A DNA stretch of 21,292 nucleotides from an uncultured virus (IMG/VR IMGVR_UViG_2740892251_000001) (taxonomy: Duplodnaviria; Heunggongvirae; Uroviricota; Caudoviricetes). A model generated the notes under the pieces. The model was not told where the DNA came from. It saw nothing but the letters and a program-made list of their open reading frames with translations, and searched no databases. Made by a program: the position numbers and the translations under genes. The stretch's first letter is position 1. Every line of letters begins with the position of its first letter. Shown here piece by piece: positions 3,274 to 12,044 of this stretch. Location of the stretch: the IMG/VR virus record IMGVR_UViG_2740892251_000001; one strand, 5' to 3'.

Positions 3274-4128
3274 ATGGCTAAGAAAGTCTCTAAGTATTTT
3301 CGTATCGGCGTTGAAGGTGATACCTGCGACGGACGAGTGATTGACGCTGACGATATCAACCAGATGGCCGAGTCATTTGATCCACGCGTCTACGGTTGCC
3401 GTATCAATTTGGAGCATTTGAAAAGTTATTTCCCTGACAGCCCCTTCCGCCGTTATGGCGATGTATCAGCACTTAAAGCAGAAACCATTGAAGACGATTC
3501 CATCCTGAACGGTAAGCGTGCGTTGTTCGCCCAAATCAGCCCAACCGATGATTTGGTGCAGATGAACAAAGCCCTACAGAAAATCTATACCTCCATGGAA
3601 ATTCGCCCGAACTTTGCCAATACCGGTAAAGCCTATCTGGTTGGGCTAGCCGTGACCGATGACCCGGCCAGTCTCGGTACTGAAATGCTGGAATTTAGCG
3701 CCAAAGCCAAGCACAACCCACTGGCCGCCCGTAAGTCTCACCCGGATAACTTTTTCTCTGCGGCGGTTGAAGTGCAACTGGAGTTTGAAGACGTGGCCGA
3801 GCCGGGTGTCACCTTACTCAACATGGTGAAGTCAGTATTCAGTCGTAAACAGGCAACCGATGATGCCCGTTTTAATGATGTGCATGAGGCGGTGAATGCC
3901 GTGGCAGTGCATGTGCAGGAACAGGGGGAAACCATTGAAGCCCGCTTTGCCGCCATTGAGAAACAACTCACTGACCACGTGGTGGAGCTGAAGCAGAGCA
4001 TCGAAAAGGGAAAGCAAGGGGTTACGTCCCTCGAAAACAAACTGTCTATCACTGAAAACTTTAGCCAGACCAAGCGCCCGGAATCCACTGGTGTCAATGG
4101 TCAAGCCGACGTGCTGACTGACTGCTAA
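3274..4128 (+). CDS. O: Capsid scaffold/protease (P2 gpO)
   Basis: MAKKVSKYFRIGVEGDTCDGR start, INLEH and GLAVTDDPASLGTE motifs, C-terminal LTDC. Start moved to 3274 because a GGAG SD sits at 3264-3267. Confidence 0.95.
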   Translation: MAKKVSKYFRIGVEGDTCDGRVIDADDINQMAESFDPRVYGCRINLEHLKSYFPDSPFRRYGDVSALKAETIEDDSILNGKRALFAQISPTDDLVQMNKALQKIYTSMEIRPNFANTGKAYLVGLAVTDDPASLGTEMLEFSAKAKHNPLAARKSHPDNFFSAAVEVQLEFEDVAEPGVTLLNMVKSVFSRKQATDDARFNDVHEAVNAVAVHVQEQGETIEARFAAIEKQLTDHVVELKQSIEKGKQGVTSLENKLSITENFSQTKRPESTGVNGQADVLTDC

Positions 4129-4204
4129 TCAGGGTCACAGGCCGCCCATTGTGCGGTCACGTTGTTATTTCACCATTACATTATTTAACTGAATCAGGAT
4201 TATT

Positions 4205-5440
4205 ATGCGCCCAGCAACCCGTTTTAAATTTAATGCCTATCTGACCCGTCAAGCCGAGCTGAACGGGGTCGCAACCGGCGATTTGAATAAAAAATTCAAC
4301 GTTGAACCCTCCGTCACGCAAACCATCATGACCCGCGTCCAAGAGTCCTCTGATTTCCTAAGCAGCATCAATATTGTGCCCGTCGCCGAGCTGACCGCTG
4401 AAAAAGTCGGCCTCGGTGTGAATGGCACAGTCGCCAGTACCACCGATACTGACGGCGGAGACGAGCGCGAAACTGCCGAGTTTGCCTCACTGGACAGTGA
4501 GAAATATTTCTGTGAACAGGTGAACTACGACTTCCACATCCGCTATAGCACCCTCGATATGTGGGCGCGTTATCTGGACTTCCAGACCCGCTTGCGCGAC
4601 GCCATTATCAAGCGGCAGGCGCTAGACCGCATTATGGCGGGTTTCAATGGCACCCACCGCGCCAAAACATCCAATCGCGCGCAGTTTCCTATGTTGGAAG
4701 ATCTTGCTGTGGGTTGGTTGCAAAAATACCGTAATAACGCACCGGCCCGCGTGATGAGTAAAGTCGTCGGGGAAAATGGTGAGTTGGTATCAGATAAGAT
4801 TCGTGTTGGCGAGGGCGGTGACTACGTCAATCTTGATGCACTGGTGATGGATGCTGCCAGCTCGATGATTGCCGAATGGTATCAGGAAGACCCCGGCCTT
4901 GTTGTCCTGACAGGTCGCAATCTGATGCAGGATAAGTATTTCCCGCTGGTCAACAAAGCGCAGGAAAACAGCGAATCCCTTGCTGCTGACATGATTATCA
5001 GCCAGAAGCGAATCGGTAACTTACCTGCCGTCAGTGCGCCCTATTTCCCGGCCAATGCATTCATGATCACCCGCCTTGATAACCTGTCTATCTACTGGCT
5101 GGAAGACTCACACCGCCGCCATATTGATGAAGTTGCTAAACGTGACCGTATCGAAAACTACGAATCCATTAAACAGGATTATGTGGTGGAAGATTACGCC
5201 GGGGGTTGTCTGGTGGAAAATATCGAGATTTTACCGGCAAAAAGTGGCAGTAAAACCGGAATGGGTGCAAGCGCGCTAATGGTATCTGATGCCCCGAACT
5301 ATGACGGTATTGCCGCCGCGATCATGGCTGCGGTGAACGTTGCGGCTAACCCGAATGAAGCCAAACCGGAAGCCACCACCGATGCGCAGGCCGCGACGGA
5401 AAGCGCTCCCGAAACACCGGCAACCAAAGGGAGCAAATAA
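4205..5440 (+). CDS. N: Major capsid protein (P2 gpN family) with a C-terminal extension
   Basis: FNVEPSVTQT, ALDRIMAGFNG, GWLQKYR and ITRLDNLSIYW motifs; 411 aa. Confidence 0.96.
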   Translation: MRPATRFKFNAYLTRQAELNGVATGDLNKKFNVEPSVTQTIMTRVQESSDFLSSINIVPVAELTAEKVGLGVNGTVASTTDTDGGDERETAEFASLDSEKYFCEQVNYDFHIRYSTLDMWARYLDFQTRLRDAIIKRQALDRIMAGFNGTHRAKTSNRAQFPMLEDLAVGWLQKYRNNAPARVMSKVVGENGELVSDKIRVGEGGDYVNLDALVMDAASSMIAEWYQEDPGLVVLTGRNLMQDKYFPLVNKAQENSESLAADMIISQKRIGNLPAVSAPYFPANAFMITRLDNLSIYWLEDSHRRHIDEVAKRDRIENYESIKQDYVVEDYAGGCLVENIEILPAKSGSKTGMGASALMVSDAPNYDGIAAAIMAAVNVAANPNEAKPEATTDAQAATESAPETPATKGSK

Positions 5441-5443
5441 GCC

Positions 5444-6103
5444 ATGACCAGTCCTGCGCGCCGCCACTTTATCCAACAGTCGGCTATTGCCGCCTCACAA
5501 CTACGGGATAACCCGTTGCGCCATGCCACCGGCTACGAGCTGATGTTGCTTAAGCTCAATGAAGATAAACGCAAGCTGAAACAGGTGCGTTCAAATGAAC
5601 GTAAAGCCGAGCTGAAGCGGCAATTATTGCCGGACTACCTGCCGTGGGTGTCAGGTGTGTTGAGTGAGGGGAAAGGCGCGCAGGACGCCATTTTAATGAC
5701 CATCATGATTTGGCGTCTGGATGCCGGGGATATCCCCGGTGCACTGGATATCGCCCGTTATGCCCTGCGTTATCAGTTAGTGCCAACAGACCGCTTTACC
5801 CGTTCTACCGCGTACCTGATTGCCGAGGAAGTGGCCGAGTCTGCCGGGCGCGCCTATGCCACCGGTAAGCCGGTTGACGTTGACCACCTGCTGCAAACCA
5901 TTGAGCTGATGGAAGACGAAGACATGCCCGACCAGGTGCGGGCCAAACTGCACAAAATGACCGGTTATGTGCTGCGTGACAGTGACCGGGGCGAACTGGC
6001 CCTGAGCCACCTTCACCGCGCACTCCAATTGCATACCGGTTGTGGCGTCAAGAAAGACATTGAGCGACTGGCCGTTAAGTTAAAGAACGCCGCCAGCCGC
6101 TAA
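5444..6103 (+). CDS. M: Terminase small subunit (P2 gpM)
   Basis: MTSPARRH start, DMPDQVRAKLHK and GVKKDIERL motifs; follows N. Confidence 0.93.
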   Translation: MTSPARRHFIQQSAIAASQLRDNPLRHATGYELMLLKLNEDKRKLKQVRSNERKAELKRQLLPDYLPWVSGVLSEGKGAQDAILMTIMIWRLDAGDIPGALDIARYALRYQLVPTDRFTRSTAYLIAEEVAESAGRAYATGKPVDVDHLLQTIELMEDEDMPDQVRAKLHKMTGYVLRDSDRGELALSHLHRALQLHTGCGVKKDIERLAVKLKNAASR

Positions 6104-6881: not shown

Positions 6882-7091
6882 ATGGAGAAAATCAGCTCTG
6901 CGTTAGCTTATGTTTTTGCGCTGCTGTTAGCGTTTATTGGCGCACTGAGTCCGCAAGATATTGCGTTTTATGTGGCGGCGCTGGCTGCTGCGGCGACCTG
7001 TCTTATTAACTGGTATTACCGGCGCAAGAGTTATTTCTTGCTGAAAGAACTGAGTATTAGGCGGGAGGTGTTCGATGAACTCAATCGTTAA
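6882..7091 (+). CDS. Holin (small, HP1/186-type)
   Basis: 69 aa with two hydrophobic segments, then NWYYRRK and a charged tail; directly upstream of the endolysin. Start set at ATG 6882, after the X stop. Confidence 0.85.
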   Translation: MEKISSALAYVFALLLAFIGALSPQDIAFYVAALAAAATCLINWYYRRKSYFLLKELSIRREVFDELNR

Positions 7092-7581
7092 GCGCTGTCT
7101 GGTCGGGGTCATTCTGGCGCTGGCCGCCACCTTGCCAAACTATCAGACGCTCAAAACATCGGCTGCCGGACTAAAACTGATTGCCGATTATGAGGGCTGC
7201 CAGCTCAACGCCTACCAATGCAGCGCCAACGTTTGGACAAATGGCATCGGTCACACGGCTGGCGTGAAGCCGGGCAGCGTGATTAGTGAGAGGCAGGTGG
7301 CGGTCAATCTGGTGGCGGATGTGCAACGGGTTGAGCAGGCAATCGCCGTCTGTATGCCGGTTGCCATGCCACAACCGGTGTATGACGCAGTGGTGAGTTT
7401 CGTCTTTAACGTCGGCACCGGCGCGGCTTGCCGCTCGACGCTGGCCTTTTTTGTCAACAAGGGCGACTGGCGCAGCGCCTGCAATCAGTTGCCGCGCTGG
7501 GTGTACGTCAATGGCGTAAAAACCAAAGGGCTAGAACGTCGCCGCACCACTGAACAAACACACTGCCTGAGCGGGGTCTGA
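7075..7581 (+). CDS. SAR endolysin, T4-lysozyme fold (GH24)
   Basis: Weakly hydrophobic N-terminal segment; catalytic E40-X8-C49-X5-T55; FNVG and GLERRR motifs. Confidence 0.92.
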   Translation: MNSIVKRCLVGVILALAATLPNYQTLKTSAAGLKLIADYEGCQLNAYQCSANVWTNGIGHTAGVKPGSVISERQVAVNLVADVQRVEQAIAVCMPVAMPQPVYDAVVSFVFNVGTGAACRSTLAFFVNKGDWRSACNQLPRWVYVNGVKTKGLERRRTTEQTHCLSGV

Positions 7582-7582
7582 T

Positions 7583-7999
7583 ATGCGCATAGCCATGATG
7601 TTGATAGTCGCGTTACTGGTTGCACTGGGGTGGTATGCCAACCGCCTGAGCCACAATATCGACAGTGCCAACCGGATTATTGGCACCTTATCAGCTGGGA
7701 TTGAGAGCCGGGACAATGCGATCACCCGAATGCAAGATGAGGCCCGGCAACAGGCAGACAATGAGCGGGCATTACGGCAATCACTGAGCCACGCCAGCAC
7801 CTTGTCATTATCTCGTGAACAGAGAATTCAAAGGTTACTCAATGAAAATAAAGTCTTGCGTGATTGGTTTGCTACTGCTTTGCCTGCTGACGTTATCCGG
7901 CTGCACCAAAGACCCGCATTTGCCAGACCCAACGATTATTTACGTTGGCTGTCCGACGGTGAGCAGTTGCCCGCTGCCGGGCAGCACCCCGGCGGTTAA
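7583..7999 (+). CDS. lysB: Inner-membrane spanin (LysB/Rz-like)
   Basis: N-terminal TM segment, coiled-coil body and the LLNENKVLRDWFATALPADVIRL motif. Confidence 0.88.
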   Translation: MRIAMMLIVALLVALGWYANRLSHNIDSANRIIGTLSAGIESRDNAITRMQDEARQQADNERALRQSLSHASTLSLSREQRIQRLLNENKVLRDWFATALPADVIRLHQRPAFARPNDYLRWLSDGEQLPAAGQHPGG

Positions 8000-8156
8000 C
8001 GGTGATTTAAGTGCCGATATCCGTCAGTTAGAAACCGCACTGGTGGCCTGCGGGCTGCAAGTGGAAGCTGTTAAACAGTGTCAGGAACAACACCATGTTA
8101 AAACCCAAACTGTTACGCCAAGCCTTAACCGACAGCCTGCAACTGTTCCAGACTAA
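7842..8156 (+). CDS. lysC: Outer-membrane lipoprotein spanin (LysC/Rz1-like), overlapping lysB and R
   Basis: From ATG 7842: signal peptide MKIKSCVIGLLLLCLLTLSG|C (lipobox LSGC), then GCPTVSSCPLP and NGDL motifs. Confidence 0.87.
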   Translation: MKIKSCVIGLLLLCLLTLSGCTKDPHLPDPTIIYVGCPTVSSCPLPGSTPAVNGDLSADIRQLETALVACGLQVEAVKQCQEQHHVKTQTVTPSLNRQPATVPD

Positions 8157-8550
8157 CCCGGAGCGGTTGAAAATGTTTGTTGATGGCGGGCGCATTGTCT
8201 CAACGCTGGCCCCGTCGCTGTCTTTTGAAAATCAATATACGCTCACGCTGTTTATTGAGGATTTCCCCGATGATATTGATTATCTCTTTGTGCCGATACT
8301 GGCATGGCTGCGGGAACATCAACCGGACATCATGGCAACAGAAGAAAAACGCCGCACCGGCTTTATTCATAAGGTTGATGTGATGAGCGATGTGTTGAGT
8401 GATATCCGTATCGACTTGCAACTGACTGAGCGGGCTATTGTGAAAGAGGTAGACGGTGCATTGCATGTTGACCATGCGCTGGAACCGGCTTGGCCGGGTA
8501 CGCCAACACGACCAACAGCAATCTACTTTAACGGTGAAACGGTCAAATGA
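8095..8550 (+). CDS. R: Tail completion protein (P2 gpR)
   Basis: MLKPKLLRQAL start, WLREHQPD and LQLTER motifs. Confidence 0.92.
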   Translation: MLKPKLLRQALTDSLQLFQTNPERLKMFVDGGRIVSTLAPSLSFENQYTLTLFIEDFPDDIDYLFVPILAWLREHQPDIMATEEKRRTGFIHKVDVMSDVLSDIRIDLQLTERAIVKEVDGALHVDHALEPAWPGTPTRPTAIYFNGETVK

Positions 8551-8993
8551 ATGAACTGAAACCCTTTGATGATGCACTGGCCGGGCTGATTGCCAGTCTG
8601 ACACCCAAAACCCGCAAAGCACTGGCGGTGACAGTTGCCAAACGCCTGCGGGCCAGCCAGCAACAACGCATTAAACGCCAGCAAGCGCCTGATGGCTCCC
8701 TGTATGCGGCGCGTAAATCTCAACCATTGCGTAAGCCAAAAGGCCGCATTAAACGGGAAATGTTCGCCAAGTTGCGCACCGTCCGCTATATGAAAGCCAA
8801 CAGTAGCCCTGATGAGGCGGTGGTTGAGTTTGCCGGGCGCGTGGAACGGATGGCGGCAGTGCACCATTTTGGCCTGCGTGACCGTCCGAACGTGCACAGC
8901 AAAGATGTGCAGTATGACGAGCGGCCGTTGCTCGGTTTCAGTCAGCAAGATATAAAACTCATTGAATCCGAACTCTTGAATGGTCTGAATTAA
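8547..8993 (+). CDS. S: Tail completion / virion morphogenesis protein (P2 gpS)
   Basis: QQQRIKRQQAPDG, VHHFGL and RPLLGF motifs; ATGA overlap with R. Confidence 0.92.
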   Translation: MNELKPFDDALAGLIASLTPKTRKALAVTVAKRLRASQQQRIKRQQAPDGSLYAARKSQPLRKPKGRIKREMFAKLRTVRYMKANSSPDEAVVEFAGRVERMAAVHHFGLRDRPNVHSKDVQYDERPLLGFSQQDIKLIESELLNGLN

Positions 8994-9044
8994 ATTACTT
9001 ATTTTCTCATTGACAAAGATGATTTAAAAAGAGATAAAGCACTC

Positions 9045-9101
9045 AAGCTATGATGTTGGTCAGCTGAGAAATCAGTGAGAGGGTTCAATTCCCTCAAGCT
9101 T
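9045..9101 (+). ncRNA. Candidate tRNA-like small RNA (cloverleaf with a canonical T-arm)
   Basis: Four stems folded by hand; T-arm GAGGG-TTCAATT-CCCTC; TTGACA at 9010-9015 upstream. No anticodon loop or CCA. Confidence 0.4.
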
Positions 9102-9111
9102 CTGATTCGTG

Positions 9112-10011
9112 CTAGCTTGAAAACTTAACATCCTTTTTTAAGGTTTTTATTTTTAATTTCATATCATCGTCGACAACAACATAATCAAGGTTCTTGGCTC
9201 TACATAGTTCGCCTTCATCTAAATTAGTGACACTACGTAAGTTTGCTCTATTCATATTCGCAACATCAAAAATAGCACCATTCATGTCACAATTTTTAAA
9301 TATACAACTTTTAAATTCGCCACTTCTAAAACTTGCTTTTGTTAGATTGCAATTAATTAAAGTTACATTATGAAATTTAGCATGTGAAAATATTGCATTT
9401 CTCATATTACAATTATTAAAGGTGACGTTTTTTAATTTAGAGCCTATAAGACTTATAGCCTGCAGTTTTGTATTCACAAATTCAGAGTTGGTCATATATA
9501 TATCATTCAAAACTAAGCCGGTAAGATCGCTTTCTTTAAATTTAATATCTCTTATCTCTATATATTTGGCTTTTTCAGCATTAGAACTCATGTCATCACC
9601 TGTTCCGCTGATGTTCATCCTATGTACTGTTATTTCATAAATTTTCATTTCATTTAACCGTCTGAGAATACCTACCTTTTTTAAGTTTATTTCCAAACTA
9701 TTGTATTTTGATATGTCAATTAAGTTATTTAATAGATCTTTATTATTTTCATTGCGTTCTCTTCTTTTTTCAAAAAAAAATAGAATAATACCGAAAACAA
9801 AAAAATCAAAAGAAGACGCATTTAAATTAACAAGAAGGTCACTCCAGAATCCTTTATTATAAATCCCAATTTCTGTTTTTGGGAAAAACCATGTACTCAA
9901 CCACGGGAAGAATAATGACCATGTAACAATGATTATAAAGTATACAAAAAAAATAATAACTATATTTTTAAGTGGGTGAGCCCGTATTTTATCAAACCAA
10001 CGCTTAAACAT
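9112..10011 (-). CDS. Moron: membrane-anchored pentapeptide-repeat protein
   Basis: 299 aa, very AT-rich and opposite to the late operon. Two N-terminal hydrophobic segments, then about 21 consecutive 5-residue repeats (FKESD LTGLV LNDIY MTNSE FVNTK ... MNRAN LRSVT). Confidence 0.9.
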   Translation of the reverse strand: MFKRWFDKIRAHPLKNIVIIFFVYFIIIVTWSLFFPWLSTWFFPKTEIGIYNKGFWSDLLVNLNASSFDFFVFGIILFFFEKRRERNENNKDLLNNLIDISKYNSLEINLKKVGILRRLNEMKIYEITVHRMNISGTGDDMSSNAEKAKYIEIRDIKFKESDLTGLVLNDIYMTNSEFVNTKLQAISLIGSKLKNVTFNNCNMRNAIFSHAKFHNVTLINCNLTKASFRSGEFKSCIFKNCDMNGAIFDVANMNRANLRSVTNLDEGELCRAKNLDYVVVDDDMKLKIKTLKKDVKFSS

Positions 10012-10040
10012 AACATCTCAATATGCAGAAAATTTTTCAG

Positions 10041-10070
10041 AGTCTGACATGAAAATCCCAACAGATGCAA
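10041..10070 (-). promoter_or_regulatory. Candidate sigma70 promoter for the moron gene
   Basis: Minus strand TTGCAT (10070-10065), 18-nt spacer, TGnCAGACT extended -10 (hexamer at 10046-10041), about 30 nt upstream of the ATG. Confidence 0.4.
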
Positions 10071-10077
10071 AGAATGT

Positions 10078-10095
10078 TGTGCCAACACTCTTACA
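10078..10095 (+). promoter_or_regulatory. Ogr site of late promoter pV
   Basis: TGT-N12-ACA sharing GTTGTGCCA with the pP/pO site; candidate -10 CATCCT at 10130-10135. Confidence 0.85.
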
Positions 10096-10142
10096 AAATG
10101 AAGTTATTGATAACAAACAACCAAAAATACATCCTTTCCCCC

Positions 10143-10784
10143 ATGAACACTCAAACCCAACTTACTGAAATTCTGCGCCTGCTGCGCAACCTGATCCGTA
10201 TTGGTACGGTGGCCGAGGTCGATCTCGACAATGCCCTGTGCCGTGTGGCGACGGGAGACAATACCACCGGCTGGCTTAACTGGCTGACGCTGCGCGCCGG
10301 TCAATCGCGATCATGGTGGGCACCGTCTGGGGGTGAGCAGGTGTTGATATTATCCCTCGGCGGCGAACTGGACACAGCCTTTGTGCTGCCGGGCATTTTC
10401 TCTGATGACTTCCCGCCGCCGTCGGCCTCGGCGGATGGCCTGTATATCGCCTTTCCTGACGGTGCCACGTTGCACTATGAACCTGAGAGCGGCGAGTTGC
10501 AGGCTGATGGCATCAAAACGGCGGTTATCAATGCCAGTGAATCGATAAATGCCACTGCCCCCACTATCACCTGTGCCGCCTTGGTCAAAATCCTGCTGGA
10601 TACACCCGAAGTGGAATGCACAAACAACCTGACTACCGGCACTTTAAAAGTGAAGAAAGGCGGCACGATGAACGGCAACATTCAGCACTCTGGCGGGCAG
10701 TTTTCATCTAATGGCGTGGTTATCGATAAGCACGACCACGGCGGCGTCTTGCGTGGTGGGGATTATACGGAGGGAATTAAATGA
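10143..10784 (+). CDS. V: Baseplate spike protein (P2 gpV)
   Basis: LRNLIRIGTV, WWAPSGGEQV and the C-terminal metal-binding HxH motif (HDH). Start set at 10143 because the upstream in-frame extension overlaps the promoter. Confidence 0.94.
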   Translation: MNTQTQLTEILRLLRNLIRIGTVAEVDLDNALCRVATGDNTTGWLNWLTLRAGQSRSWWAPSGGEQVLILSLGGELDTAFVLPGIFSDDFPPPSASADGLYIAFPDGATLHYEPESGELQADGIKTAVINASESINATAPTITCAALVKILLDTPEVECTNNLTTGTLKVKKGGTMNGNIQHSGGQFSSNGVVIDKHDHGGVLRGGDYTEGIK

Positions 10785-11131
10785 CCACTGCCACCTATCT
10801 CGGCATGAGCCGCAACGCCGGGCAAACCATTACCGACGCTGACCACATCAGCCAGTCAATCGCCGACATTTTGATTACGCCAGTCGGTTCGCGGGTGATG
10901 CGCCGTGCCTATGGGTCGCTGCTATCCGAGCTGATTGACCAGCCACAAAATCCGGCCCTGCGCCTGCAAATTATGGCCGCCAGTTACAGTGCGATTTTGC
11001 GCTGGGAGCCGAGGGTCAAACTGACTGGTATCACCTTTGAAACCACTATTGACGGGAAAATGGTGGTTGATATCACCGGCACTCGCACCGATAGCGCGGC
11101 CCCCCTCTCTTTAACCATCCCTGTGAGCTAA
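10781..11131 (+). CDS. W: Baseplate wedge protein (P2 gpW, gp25-like)
   Basis: HISQSIADILITPVGSRVMRRAYGS and RWEPRV motifs. Confidence 0.94.
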   Translation: MTTATYLGMSRNAGQTITDADHISQSIADILITPVGSRVMRRAYGSLLSELIDQPQNPALRLQIMAASYSAILRWEPRVKLTGITFETTIDGKMVVDITGTRTDSAAPLSLTIPVS

Positions 11132-11135
11132 CCCT

Positions 11136-12044
11136 ATGGCAACCATTGACCTGAGCCTGTTACCGCCGCCGTTTGTGGTGGAAGAACTGGACTATGAAAC
11201 CCTGCTGGCCGAGCGTAAAGCCACGCTGATATCTCTTTACCCGGAAGAACAGCGCGCAGCCGTGGCCCGCACGTTGTCGCTGGAGTCGGAGCCGCTGGTC
11301 AAGTTGCTACAGGAAAACGCTTACCGCGAGGTGATATTACGCCAGCGTGTCAACGATGCGGCGCGCGCGGTGATGGTGGCCTATGCCGTCGGCAGTGATT
11401 TAGACCAGCTCGGCGCAAATAACAACGTTGAGCGGCTGGTGATCACCCCGGCAGACCCCACCGCTATTCCGCCGATTGAGGCCGTGATGGAATCTGACAG
11501 TGATTTCCGGGTGCGTATCCCGCAAGCCTTTGAGGGCTTGAGCGTCGCCGGGCCAACGGGTGCTTATGAATATCACGCCAAAAGCGCTGATGGCCGTGTG
11601 GCCGATGCCTCGGCAATCAGTCCGACCCCCGCCTGTGTCACGGTCACGGTGTTGTCGCGTGAGGGCAACGGCGAAGCCTCAGCCGAACTGCTGGCCGTGG
11701 TTGAGGCCGCGCTGAATGATGAGAACACGCGGCCAGTGGCTGACCGGGTGACGGTGCAATCCGCCCACATTGAAGATTATGAGATTGACGCGGTGCTCTA
11801 TCTGCATCCGGGGCCGGAGGCTGAACCGGTACGCATTGCGGCAGAGAAGAAACTGACCGCCTTTGTGACCGCACAGCGCCGCCTTGGTCGCGACATTCGT
11901 CTGTCGGCCCTCTATGCCGCGCTGCATGTTGAGGGCGTCCAGCGGGCGGTAATTAATGCCCCCCTGGCTGACGTGGTGCTGGATAAAACCCAAGCGGCTT
12001 GGTGCACCGGCAGCAGCATCACTGTCGGGGGTACGGATGACTGA
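11136..12044 (+). CDS. J: Baseplate J protein
   Basis: MATIDLSLLPPP start, LESEPLVKLL and SVAGPTGAYEYHA motifs. Confidence 0.95.
   Translation: MATIDLSLLPPPFVVEELDYETLLAERKATLISLYPEEQRAAVARTLSLESEPLVKLLQENAYREVILRQRVNDAARAVMVAYAVGSDLDQLGANNNVERLVITPADPTAIPPIEAVMESDSDFRVRIPQAFEGLSVAGPTGAYEYHAKSADGRVADASAISPTPACVTVTVLSREGNGEASAELLAVVEAALNDENTRPVADRVTVQSAHIEDYEIDAVLYLHPGPEAEPVRIAAEKKLTAFVTAQRRLGRDIRLSALYAALHVEGVQRAVINAPLADVVLDKTQAAWCTGSSITVGGTDD

Follow-up and report, generated by a model that had tools for sequence, protein, structure and literature searches.

A conserved tRNA-like RNA element convergent on a pentapeptide-repeat membrane protein gene in a P2-like phage

We analyzed a stretch of 21,292 nucleotides (nt), here called the window, from an uncultured virus (IMG/VR record IMGVR_UViG_2740892251_000001). 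Our subject is a small tRNA-like cloverleaf at positions 9045 to 9101, which points towards the 3' end of a gene for a membrane protein with pentapeptide repeats. From comparison with related loci, this element is very probably a conserved, structured RNA gene that is equipped with a promoter and obligately linked to the membrane protein gene. The two genes appear to be one mobile two-gene cassette, carried here as cargo in the slot between genes gpS and gpV of a P2-like phage. The membrane protein gene is one carried by temperate phages, and the conserved tail-to-tail arrangement points to a joint function of RNA and protein. A preliminary description, made from the letters of the window alone, had proposed a phage small RNA, not described before, that is linked to the pentapeptide-repeat membrane protein next to it, and the conserved fold and co-occurrence described below support that proposal. 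The features of the cassette, in window coordinates, are as follows.

9010-9038, plus strand: putative sigma-70-type promoter of the RNA gene (-35 TTGACA at 9010-9015, 17-nt spacer, -10-like GATAAA at 9033-9038; predicted start at about 9045)
9045-9101, plus strand: tRNA-like cloverleaf RNA, 57 nt (from minimum free energy folding, covariance model R1, and covariation)
9045-9049 and 9097-9101, plus strand: acceptor-like (closing) stem, AAGCU/AGCUU, 5 bp
9051-9062, plus strand: D-like arm with GG in its loop
9063-9076, plus strand: variable hairpin replacing the anticodon arm, with a GAAA loop in the window
9079-9095, plus strand: T-arm, loop UUCAAUU
9102-9111, no strand: gap of 10 nt between the RNA 3' end and the convergent stop codon, with no terminator on either strand
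9112-10011, minus strand: gene for a membrane protein of 299 amino acids with two transmembrane (TM) segments and pentapeptide repeats (open reading frame [ORF]; Pfam pentapeptide families; AlphaFold predicted local distance difference test score [pLDDT] 90.1)

The fold and its conservation

The coordinates and letters that the preliminary description gave for the cloverleaf arms and the promoter hexamers were all correct on re-reading. The four-arm fold that it drew at 9045-9101 is also exactly the minimum free energy (MFE) structure predicted by RNAfold for that segment (-17.4 kcal/mol). Shuffled versions of the segment had a mean of -12.2 kcal/mol (standard deviation, 2.37; z = -2.19), and 7 of 200 folded equally well. 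Taken by itself, the window sequence holds a cloverleaf that is real but only marginally above chance. When flanks were added (9030-9135), the MFE structure switched to a long-range pairing of 9043-9050 with 9113-9120 (z = -1.50), and neither strand of this longer segment was exceptional (z = -1.50 and -1.43). The preliminary description had pointed to this alternative pairing. It does form once the flanks are included, but it is missing from the closest relative (L006) and so is not general. Therefore, it is probably incidental.

It is the comparative data that carry weight, and as far as sequence comparison goes they show that the feature is more than chance. Loci were fetched by their protein similarity to the gene for the two-TM, pentapeptide-repeat protein. 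Five homologues of the window protein came from a protein collection, and loci then came from viral and metagenome contigs and from one E. coli phage. The first two loci (67% and 43% protein identity) had a similar cloverleaf at the equivalent site, and a degenerate pattern found two further loci. Counting the window, the final set had 21 loci. L031 stops at the gene end, and the other 20 have sequence beyond it. Covariance model R1 scored 63.3 bits on the window, at 9046-9101, and this was its single match in the phage genome, which indicates one copy of the element. Thirteen of the 20 loci matched R1 at 24.9 to 74.6 bits, in each case directly beyond or overlapping the 3' end of the gene and on the opposite strand. 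Six more had equivalent sequences by pattern. The last locus, L028, scored only 7.5 bits (E = 3) at the expected place, and its MFE structure is a clean four-arm cloverleaf. Altogether, 19 of the 20 protein-retrieved loci have a cloverleaf convergent on the gene, and the 20th has a diverged copy, which bears out the suspected co-occurrence with the pentapeptide gene. Five loci that lie outside the training set of R1 (L029, L030, L032, L033, and L034) matched it at E values from 4e-11 to 1e-5.

Control regions behaved differently. Four Yersinia phage gpS-gpV regions with other cargo gave no R1 match at E <= 10, and the best R1 score among seven loci with unrelated pentapeptide genes was only 11.1 bits (E = 0.24). 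The E. coli type of the element was present in 14 of 5,426 complete genomes. In all of these it lies between gpS and the pentapeptide gene, at a site without any RNA annotation. Closely matching copies were not found by other searches: blastn with a 146-nt region had no match in the phage or E. coli collections, an exact 33-mer had none in viral contigs, and an exact 21-mer spanning the T-arm and acceptor had none in 185,579 species genomes, which hold neither a donor tRNA nor an identical copy by this measure. A protein-pattern scan of the species genomes found no relative, and neither did single-protein scans of viral contigs with the window protein and the L016 protein. Contigs from runs X3 and X4, which have another organism label and come from another study, are identical to the window over 8911-9362 and add no variation there; they differ from it deeper in the gene, at 9406, 9514, 9550, and 9563. 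Therefore, the cassette appears to circulate nearly unchanged among isolates.

We also scanned in the opposite direction, from the RNA, with the degenerate pattern. This returned 18 stretches, of which 8 were on contigs already known for the family gene and 3 were real tRNAs. The other 7 were neither tRNAs nor beside a family gene and scored at most 17.1 bits with R1; four of these read as one conserved coding sequence. Another is a 52-nt structure on the minus strand of a high-G+C viral contig (L049, 1492-1543; R1 17.1 bits), with a T-arm and a 6-bp closing stem. It has no family gene within 1.5 kb and is not called as a tRNA by ARAGORN.

The elements fall into 13 lineages of about three sequence types, which share the fold and differ in their stems. 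For example, the acceptor-like stem is AAGCU/AGCUU in the window, GGAU/AUCC in L007, GAGGC/GCCUC in L009, GAGGU/ACCUC in the E. coli type, and GGCA/UGCC in L028 and L029. In a MAFFT alignment of nine sequences, 82.3% of the cells at paired positions can pair, versus 66.8% in shuffles (reached by 0 of 500), and 13 of the 21 pairs change on both sides (equaled in 30 of 500 shuffles). The covariation score was 0.444 versus 0.215 (0 of 500), and only 39 to 51% of cells paired when the partners were slid. An alignment of all 13 sequences to the model gave 83.0% paired cells versus 64.8% (0 of 500), changes on both sides in 14 of 21 pairs (11 of 500 shuffles), and a covariation score of 0.463 versus 0.178 (0 of 500), with 43 to 53% pairing for slid partners. 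The preliminary description had made structural conservation in homologous loci one test of its proposal, and the structure is conserved, with compensatory changes.

The unconstrained MFE structure is the cloverleaf in the window, L007, L009, and L022, and also in L028, L029, L030, and L033; in L006 it is a tie. Conservation is strongest in three places: the inner three pairs of the T-stem, which are G-C in 12 of 13 rows (L016 is mismatched at the outermost of them, 73/85); the UUCRAUU loop; and the GG of the D region, present in all 13 rows. The D-like arm has only three firm pairs. The third arm is a hairpin that varies in length and in its loop, which may be GAAA, GAGA, CAAGU, CUUG, CGUG, GUUA, or longer. 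The loop length is 4 nt in the window and 4, 5, 12 nt or more in relatives, on stems of 5 to 7 bp or more. The GNRA tetraloop that had been noticed is thus present in the window as GAAA, but it does not hold across lineages. The strand can be assigned as well. G.U cells outnumber A.C cells by 23 to 9, which favors the strand with the T-loop motif; the T-loop and GG motifs read properly only on the plus strand, and the promoter described below is on the same strand in 13 of 13 lineages.

The element resembles a tRNA only in part. A canonical tRNA has a 7-bp acceptor stem, and enterobacterial tRNA genes encode the 3' CCA. Here, the stem is 4 to 5 bp and no CCA is encoded: the 3' flanks begin CTG, CTA, TAA, AAA, GTA, GTT, TTT, GCT, or GCC, and never CCA. 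In place of a 7-nt anticodon loop on a 5-bp stem there is a third arm whose loop never has 7 nt (4 nt in the window). The absence of an anticodon and of CCA had been pointed out before, and both observations hold. The UUCRAUU-type T-loop and the D-loop GG, in contrast, are those of a tRNA. ARAGORN found no tRNA gene in the window or in L006, L007, L009, L012, L016, L021, L022, and L024, whereas it called the real tRNAs of L025 to L027. When R1 was run on a 4.8-Mb E. coli chromosome, the element scored 74.6 bits and the next three matches were real tRNA-Gly genes, at 23 to 24.8 bits, which we take as an independent sign of tRNA likeness.

No Rfam 15 family matched the element at its gathering score in the 13 sources. 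The best match below threshold was mascRNA-menRNA (RF01684; 17.1 versus a gathering score of 42.5 bits), and tmRNA (RF00023) reached 11.4 versus 47 bits, over the T-arm only. The mascRNA/menRNA family (RF01684) and the tRNA-like domain of the bacterial Y RNA YrlA are similar to the element in being cloverleafs of about 60 nt with a T-arm, an acceptor-like stem, and a reduced anticodon arm. They are matured by tRNA-processing enzymes, as would be expected for the element. However, the element is bacterial and phage-borne, has a promoter of its own, and is obligately paired with a membrane protein gene. It also differs from YrlA in having no Ro/Rsr gene nearby. In our literature searches, which covered listings, abstracts, and some passages, a tRNA-like RNA that partners a pentapeptide membrane protein was not described.

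Putative promoter, convergent ends, and genomic contexts

The preliminary description had proposed the promoter at 9010-9038. TTGACA, the 17-nt spacer, and GATAAA are all present, and the same layout recurs upstream of the cloverleaf in 13 of 13 lineages, with a -35 hexamer, a spacer of 17 to 18 nt, and a -10-like hexamer. However, a strict promoter scan of the window did not list it, because GATAAA lacks the final T. Across the 13 lineages, the -35 hexamer is TTGACA, TTGACT, TTGACG, or TTGCAA, and the -10 hexamer is GATAAA, TCAAAT, TTAAAT, TATTAT, CATTAT, GATGAT, GATAAT, TATTTT, TATAAT, TATCAT, or TAGTTT, ending 2 to 15 nt before the cloverleaf. L030 and L033 have an extended -10, TATAAT. In L007, L009/L011, L012, and L016, the TGA stop codon of gpS falls within the -35 hexamer, and the codons that precede it differ. 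Therefore, the hexamer appears to be conserved as DNA and not for the sake of the encoded protein. In the E. coli phage version (L012, 3142-3170, minus strand), a perfect 8-bp inverted repeat brackets the -10 of the RNA promoter. This repeat, which L021 and L022 have not retained, might serve as an operator or form a leader hairpin.

The two genes meet closely at their 3' ends. A terminator scan from gpS to the convergent gene found no terminator-like site on either strand. Relative to the convergent stop codon, the RNA 3' end lies anywhere from 10 nt short of it to 44 nt inside the reading frame across the 13 lineages. The reading frame overlaps the RNA gene by 8 to 44 nt in eight lineages; the other five, including the window, have no reading-frame overlap, and overlap there would hinge on an unmapped 3' untranslated region (UTR). 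More distant family members, known as proteins only, carry an independent trace of this overlap: four have GIEP as their C terminus and two have a GNRT-containing tail (SGNRTTVTQP), which correspond to a T-arm translated from the reverse strand. Reading frames that lack the usual stop and run through the RNA gene occur at L016 (2441-3406) and in proteins P0020, P0071, P0077, P0080, and P0106.

The pair was found in three genomic contexts. Most loci, among them the window, L006, L007, L009, L012, L016, and L032, are in the gpS-gpV slot. The L029 pair adjoins the host SraC/RyeA-SdsR/RyeB locus, with an integrase gene on one side and the prophage end on the other. In L030, it is beside genes for a repressor-like protein, an HNH protein, and a P-loop ATPase, with no co-oriented gene upstream of the RNA. 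Thus, the RNA gene and the protein gene seem to move together as a unit.

Two side observations concern these contexts. The L029 and L007 contigs both start (1-129) with the host SraC/RyeA-SdsR/RyeB small-RNA locus (Rfam, 94 to 123 bits), and therefore both prophages or remnants adjoin that locus. In L030, by motif reading, the cassette is between an HNH-motif ORF (2122-2487) and a P-loop ATPase ORF of 625 amino acids (3718-5595), near a repressor-like ORF and a cytosine-methyltransferase-like fragment. This neighborhood looks like a defense-type one.

The partner protein and how the pair might work

The AlphaFold model of the membrane protein has TM helices at about residues 15-42 and 53-80. 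The second of these extends into the cytosol as a long helix; a beta-helix (150-265) comes next, and the chain closes with a C-terminal helix. The pentapeptide-repeat domain has a net charge of +6 in the window protein and a median of +5 across the family, in which 35 of 37 members are positive. MfpA and Qnr, DNA mimics that target gyrase, are acidic. The protein falls in phrog_12514 (function unknown), matches pentapeptide families only, and has no endoribonuclease family match. The family comprises at least 30 full-length clusters at 50% identity within the best 150 library hits. Atlas clusters have up to 578 members, and family proteins have 253 to 324 amino acids.

Foldseek against the PDB returned generic pentapeptide proteins only. 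In a comparison with HalA of the Hailong defense system (9nyi_A), the beta-helix alone aligns (model 100-294 to chain 14-226; Z = 10.1; root mean square deviation, 4.4; 150 residues), with a profile match over 70 residues (E = 7.3e-7). A review (PMC13434031, section 11) states that HalB makes an oligo-dA that keeps the HalA membrane channel closed. A pentapeptide plus channel protein is called Hailong-like in a 2026 survey of P2/P4 hotspots. Likenesses between the two systems are a membrane effector with a cytosolic pentapeptide-type beta-helix, the logic (proposed here for the cassette) of a constitutively made nucleic acid as guard, and residence in phage or satellite defense hotspots. However, the TM segments come first in the window protein, whereas the beta-helix comes first in HalA; there is no HalB here; and the candidate ligand would be a genetically encoded structured RNA. 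We therefore use Hailong as an analogy and do not file the window protein under it.

We propose that the RNA is transcribed from the promoter at 9010-9038 towards the 3' end of the convergent gene (10011..9112) and is the negative partner of the membrane protein. We favor this role as a whole over the alternatives, at about even odds. Two routes, which do not exclude each other, seem the likeliest. In one, the RNA would act as a cis antisense: the two transcripts would be complementary at their 3' ends and the polymerases would collide, so that the protein mRNA is held down. Complementary ends and collision would be expected because there is no terminator between the genes and the reading frames of 8 of 13 lineages extend 8 to 44 nt into the RNA gene. 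If both promoters fire, antisense pairing and polymerase collision seem almost unavoidable. In the other route, the RNA would be a bound guard. Recognizing its tRNA-like fold, tRNA-processing enzymes would trim the transcript to a discrete, stable RNA of about 60 nt without the need for a terminator. Once trimmed, the RNA would hold the membrane effector closed by binding to its basic cytosolic beta-helix. Infection would then deplete or damage the RNA and release the effector, by a logic like that of an RNA antitoxin or of the Hailong oligo-dA guard. The tRNA-like fold exceeds what antisense action needs and suits maturation into a stable RNA that could bind a basic beta-helix.

A bolder version of this proposal is that the cassette is an immune or exclusion module, in which a pore-forming two-TM protein is shut by a tRNA mimic on its basic beta-helix, making it an RNA-gated membrane effector. 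The tRNA-like guard would report phage action on the tRNA pool or on RNA synthesis (nucleases, modification, or transcription shutoff), and loss of the guard would open the pore. In this version, an RNA would play the part that the DNA guard has in Hailong, and the sensor would be built on a tRNA scaffold. We put this version forward tentatively and consider it somewhat unlikely. If true, an RNA-gated membrane effector would be new in kind; otherwise, the pair would be a variant of tRNA-mimic RNAs and RNA-protein antidote pairs.

Two classes of toxin-antitoxin system also resemble the pair. In the 3'-overlap class of type I systems (such as txpA/RatA and bsrG/SR4 of Bacillus prophages), the RNA gene is likewise convergent, the protein is located in the membrane, and the pair is prophage-borne. 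The RNA of that class is complementary in its 3' part to the mRNA 3' end, as it would be in the eight lineages of the cassette with reading-frame overlap. However, the protein here is about 250 to 325 amino acids (299 in the window) with a large cytosolic domain and is not a small hydrophobic peptide. The conserved tRNA-like fold is not needed for antisense action, and 5 of 13 lineages have no reading-frame overlap. In type III systems (ToxIN, CptIN, and TenpIN), a high-level RNA neutralizes the protein by binding and its loss on infection frees the protein, as we propose here. However, the RNA of the cassette is a single unit with no tandem repeats, it is convergent and not upstream and co-oriented, and its protein has no endoribonuclease match.

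Several observations weigh against our proposal. In the lineages, there is no conserved terminator after the RNA gene and no defined 3' end. In L009/L011, the best acceptor pairing starts only 2 nt after the -10, and transcription starting at the usual spacing would truncate it. L016 is degenerate: the reading frame extends 38 nt into a cloverleaf whose energy exceeds the MFE by 7 kcal/mol. The 13-sequence alignment is fitted to model R1, and the lineages are few and related; because they represent about three sequence types, many of the double changes are inherited and not independent. No transcript was seen: none of the RNA runs on record covers the locus, and the one RNA run compared, X6, contributed two reads, both below 90% identity and at the gpS end only. 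When the cloverleaf was paired with the 5' UTR and start of the gene, duplex energies were no better than those of shuffles at 8 of 8 loci (12 to 81 of 100 shuffles were as good). As for the protein, it is not a HalA orthologue: the domain order is reversed, and generic pentapeptide proteins score far higher (MfpA, Z = 19.1). There is no HalB-like nucleotidyltransferase adjacent, the neighbors being gpS and gpV, and the cassette has no further ORF. PADLOC gave no match for the window protein, whose role in toxicity or defense is hypothetical. Its one weak match, of the SLATT type (E = 0.0027), was to the N terminus of the E. coli version and is a lead only.

Other explanations account for parts of the data. 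The fold might be punctuation or an insulator only, that is, a processing signal for a 5' cut by RNase P and for 3' trimming, which would end both convergent transcripts and the late gpS transcript in the gpS-gpV slot and release an RNA with no function. Punctuation of this kind, by RNase P at tRNA-like structures, is established for mascRNA/MALAT1 and for polycistronic bacterial RNAs. It would suit a region with no terminator-like site between gpS and the gene on either strand, and the element is co-oriented with gpS in the P2 slot, so that late read-through transcripts would include it. However, all 13 of 13 lineages have a dedicated, near-consensus promoter, which in L030 and L033 is an extended -10 TATAAT with no co-oriented gene upstream. 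Furthermore, other cargo of the same slot does without the element, and the element accompanies the gene to other contexts. We consider this explanation unlikely. Alternatively, the RNA might be a counter-defense decoy, a tRNA mimic that occupies host or rival enzymes recognizing the tRNA elbow or acceptor end, with the pentapeptide protein as a separate or cooperating counter-defense factor. The T-loop and D-loop GG, which make up the tRNA elbow, are indeed the best-conserved parts, and phage tRNAs are reportedly able to neutralize tRNA-targeting defense, going by the title of work by Burman et al. from 2024. A phage pentapeptide protein has been reported, in a passage of 10.1101/2024.07.02.601686, to counter the Sucellos system. 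Against a decoy, there is no anticodon loop, and the element therefore could not decoy anticodon nucleases. Strict tail-to-tail linkage and overlap with one gene are not needed by a free decoy either, and elsewhere the cassette's slots hold prophage-encoded defense cargo, such as a retron-type reverse transcriptase. This makes the decoy explanation quite unlikely in our judgment.

Two further explanations deny the element a function as RNA. It might be a DNA-level site, for recombination or attachment, that moves the cassette, such as a remnant of integration into a tRNA gene. The 3' halves of tRNAs are common integration targets, and the three contexts include one that adjoins an integrase and a prophage end. 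However, an attachment site would not be expected to have a conserved promoter, a complete cloverleaf in which every arm shows compensatory changes, or G.U cells that outnumber A.C cells by 23 to 9, and the exact T-arm and acceptor 21-mer revealed no donor tRNA among the species genomes. Such a site is very improbable. The plain alternative in the preliminary description was a decayed tRNA gene with no present function. ARAGORN does find no tRNA, the arms are short, and L016 looks eroded. However, the element is conserved beside proteins that are only 27 to 44% identical, and some of its segments outdo the protein in conservation. Because of the covariation, the conserved promoter, and the linkage across three genomic contexts, we find this remnant, already disfavored, scarcely credible.

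A conserved RNA gene paired with the membrane protein gene would matter in several ways. It would be a new structured RNA family, being outside Rfam 15, uncalled by tRNA finders, and unannotated in 14 complete E. coli genomes. The partner proteins form a widespread family of unknown function, for which the pairing with an RNA gives a testable model. The cassette occupies phage cargo slots that hold defense systems elsewhere, and surveys based on genes only would miss the RNA half; the protein gene alone might be scored in them as toxic or inactive. Should the RNA prove to be a guard of the membrane protein, tRNA mimicry would be regulating an effector in a new way.

The phage and its cargo slot

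The window is part of a 33,437-bp virus record and belongs to a P2-like phage, related most closely to Yersinia enterocolitica phages (90.6 to 92.1% identity over 71 to 72% of the region 7000-11200). One more feature borders the cassette.

8547-8993, plus strand: gpS-type tail completion gene (ORF; annotated homologues in Yersinia phages)

The content of the gap between gpS and gpV varies among the Yersinia phages. It is 73 nt in vB_YenM_201.16, holds an unrelated minus-strand ORF in 06.16-2 and 31.17, and holds a retron-type reverse transcriptase with a regulator in 56.17. In the window, it is occupied by a low-G+C segment with the gene for the 299-amino-acid protein, convergent with gpS. From these sequences, the gap (window 8994-10142; L002 to L005) is a cargo hotspot in this phage group, and the element is therefore placed in a cargo slot. 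The last 45 nt or so of gpS are already low in G+C, and the gpS C terminus differs between phages with different cargo in the slot. Because the last codons vary with the cargo, the exchange points appear to be inside gpS.

Two minor observations concern the gpV side of the slot. A TGT-N12-ACA dyad is present at 10078-10095, about 50 nt upstream of gpV, with similar dyads in L003 and L004; we take it to be a site for the activator of P2 late promoters. The listed ORF at 10065-10784 is too long at the 5' end of gpV; homology places the gpV start at the ATG at 10143.

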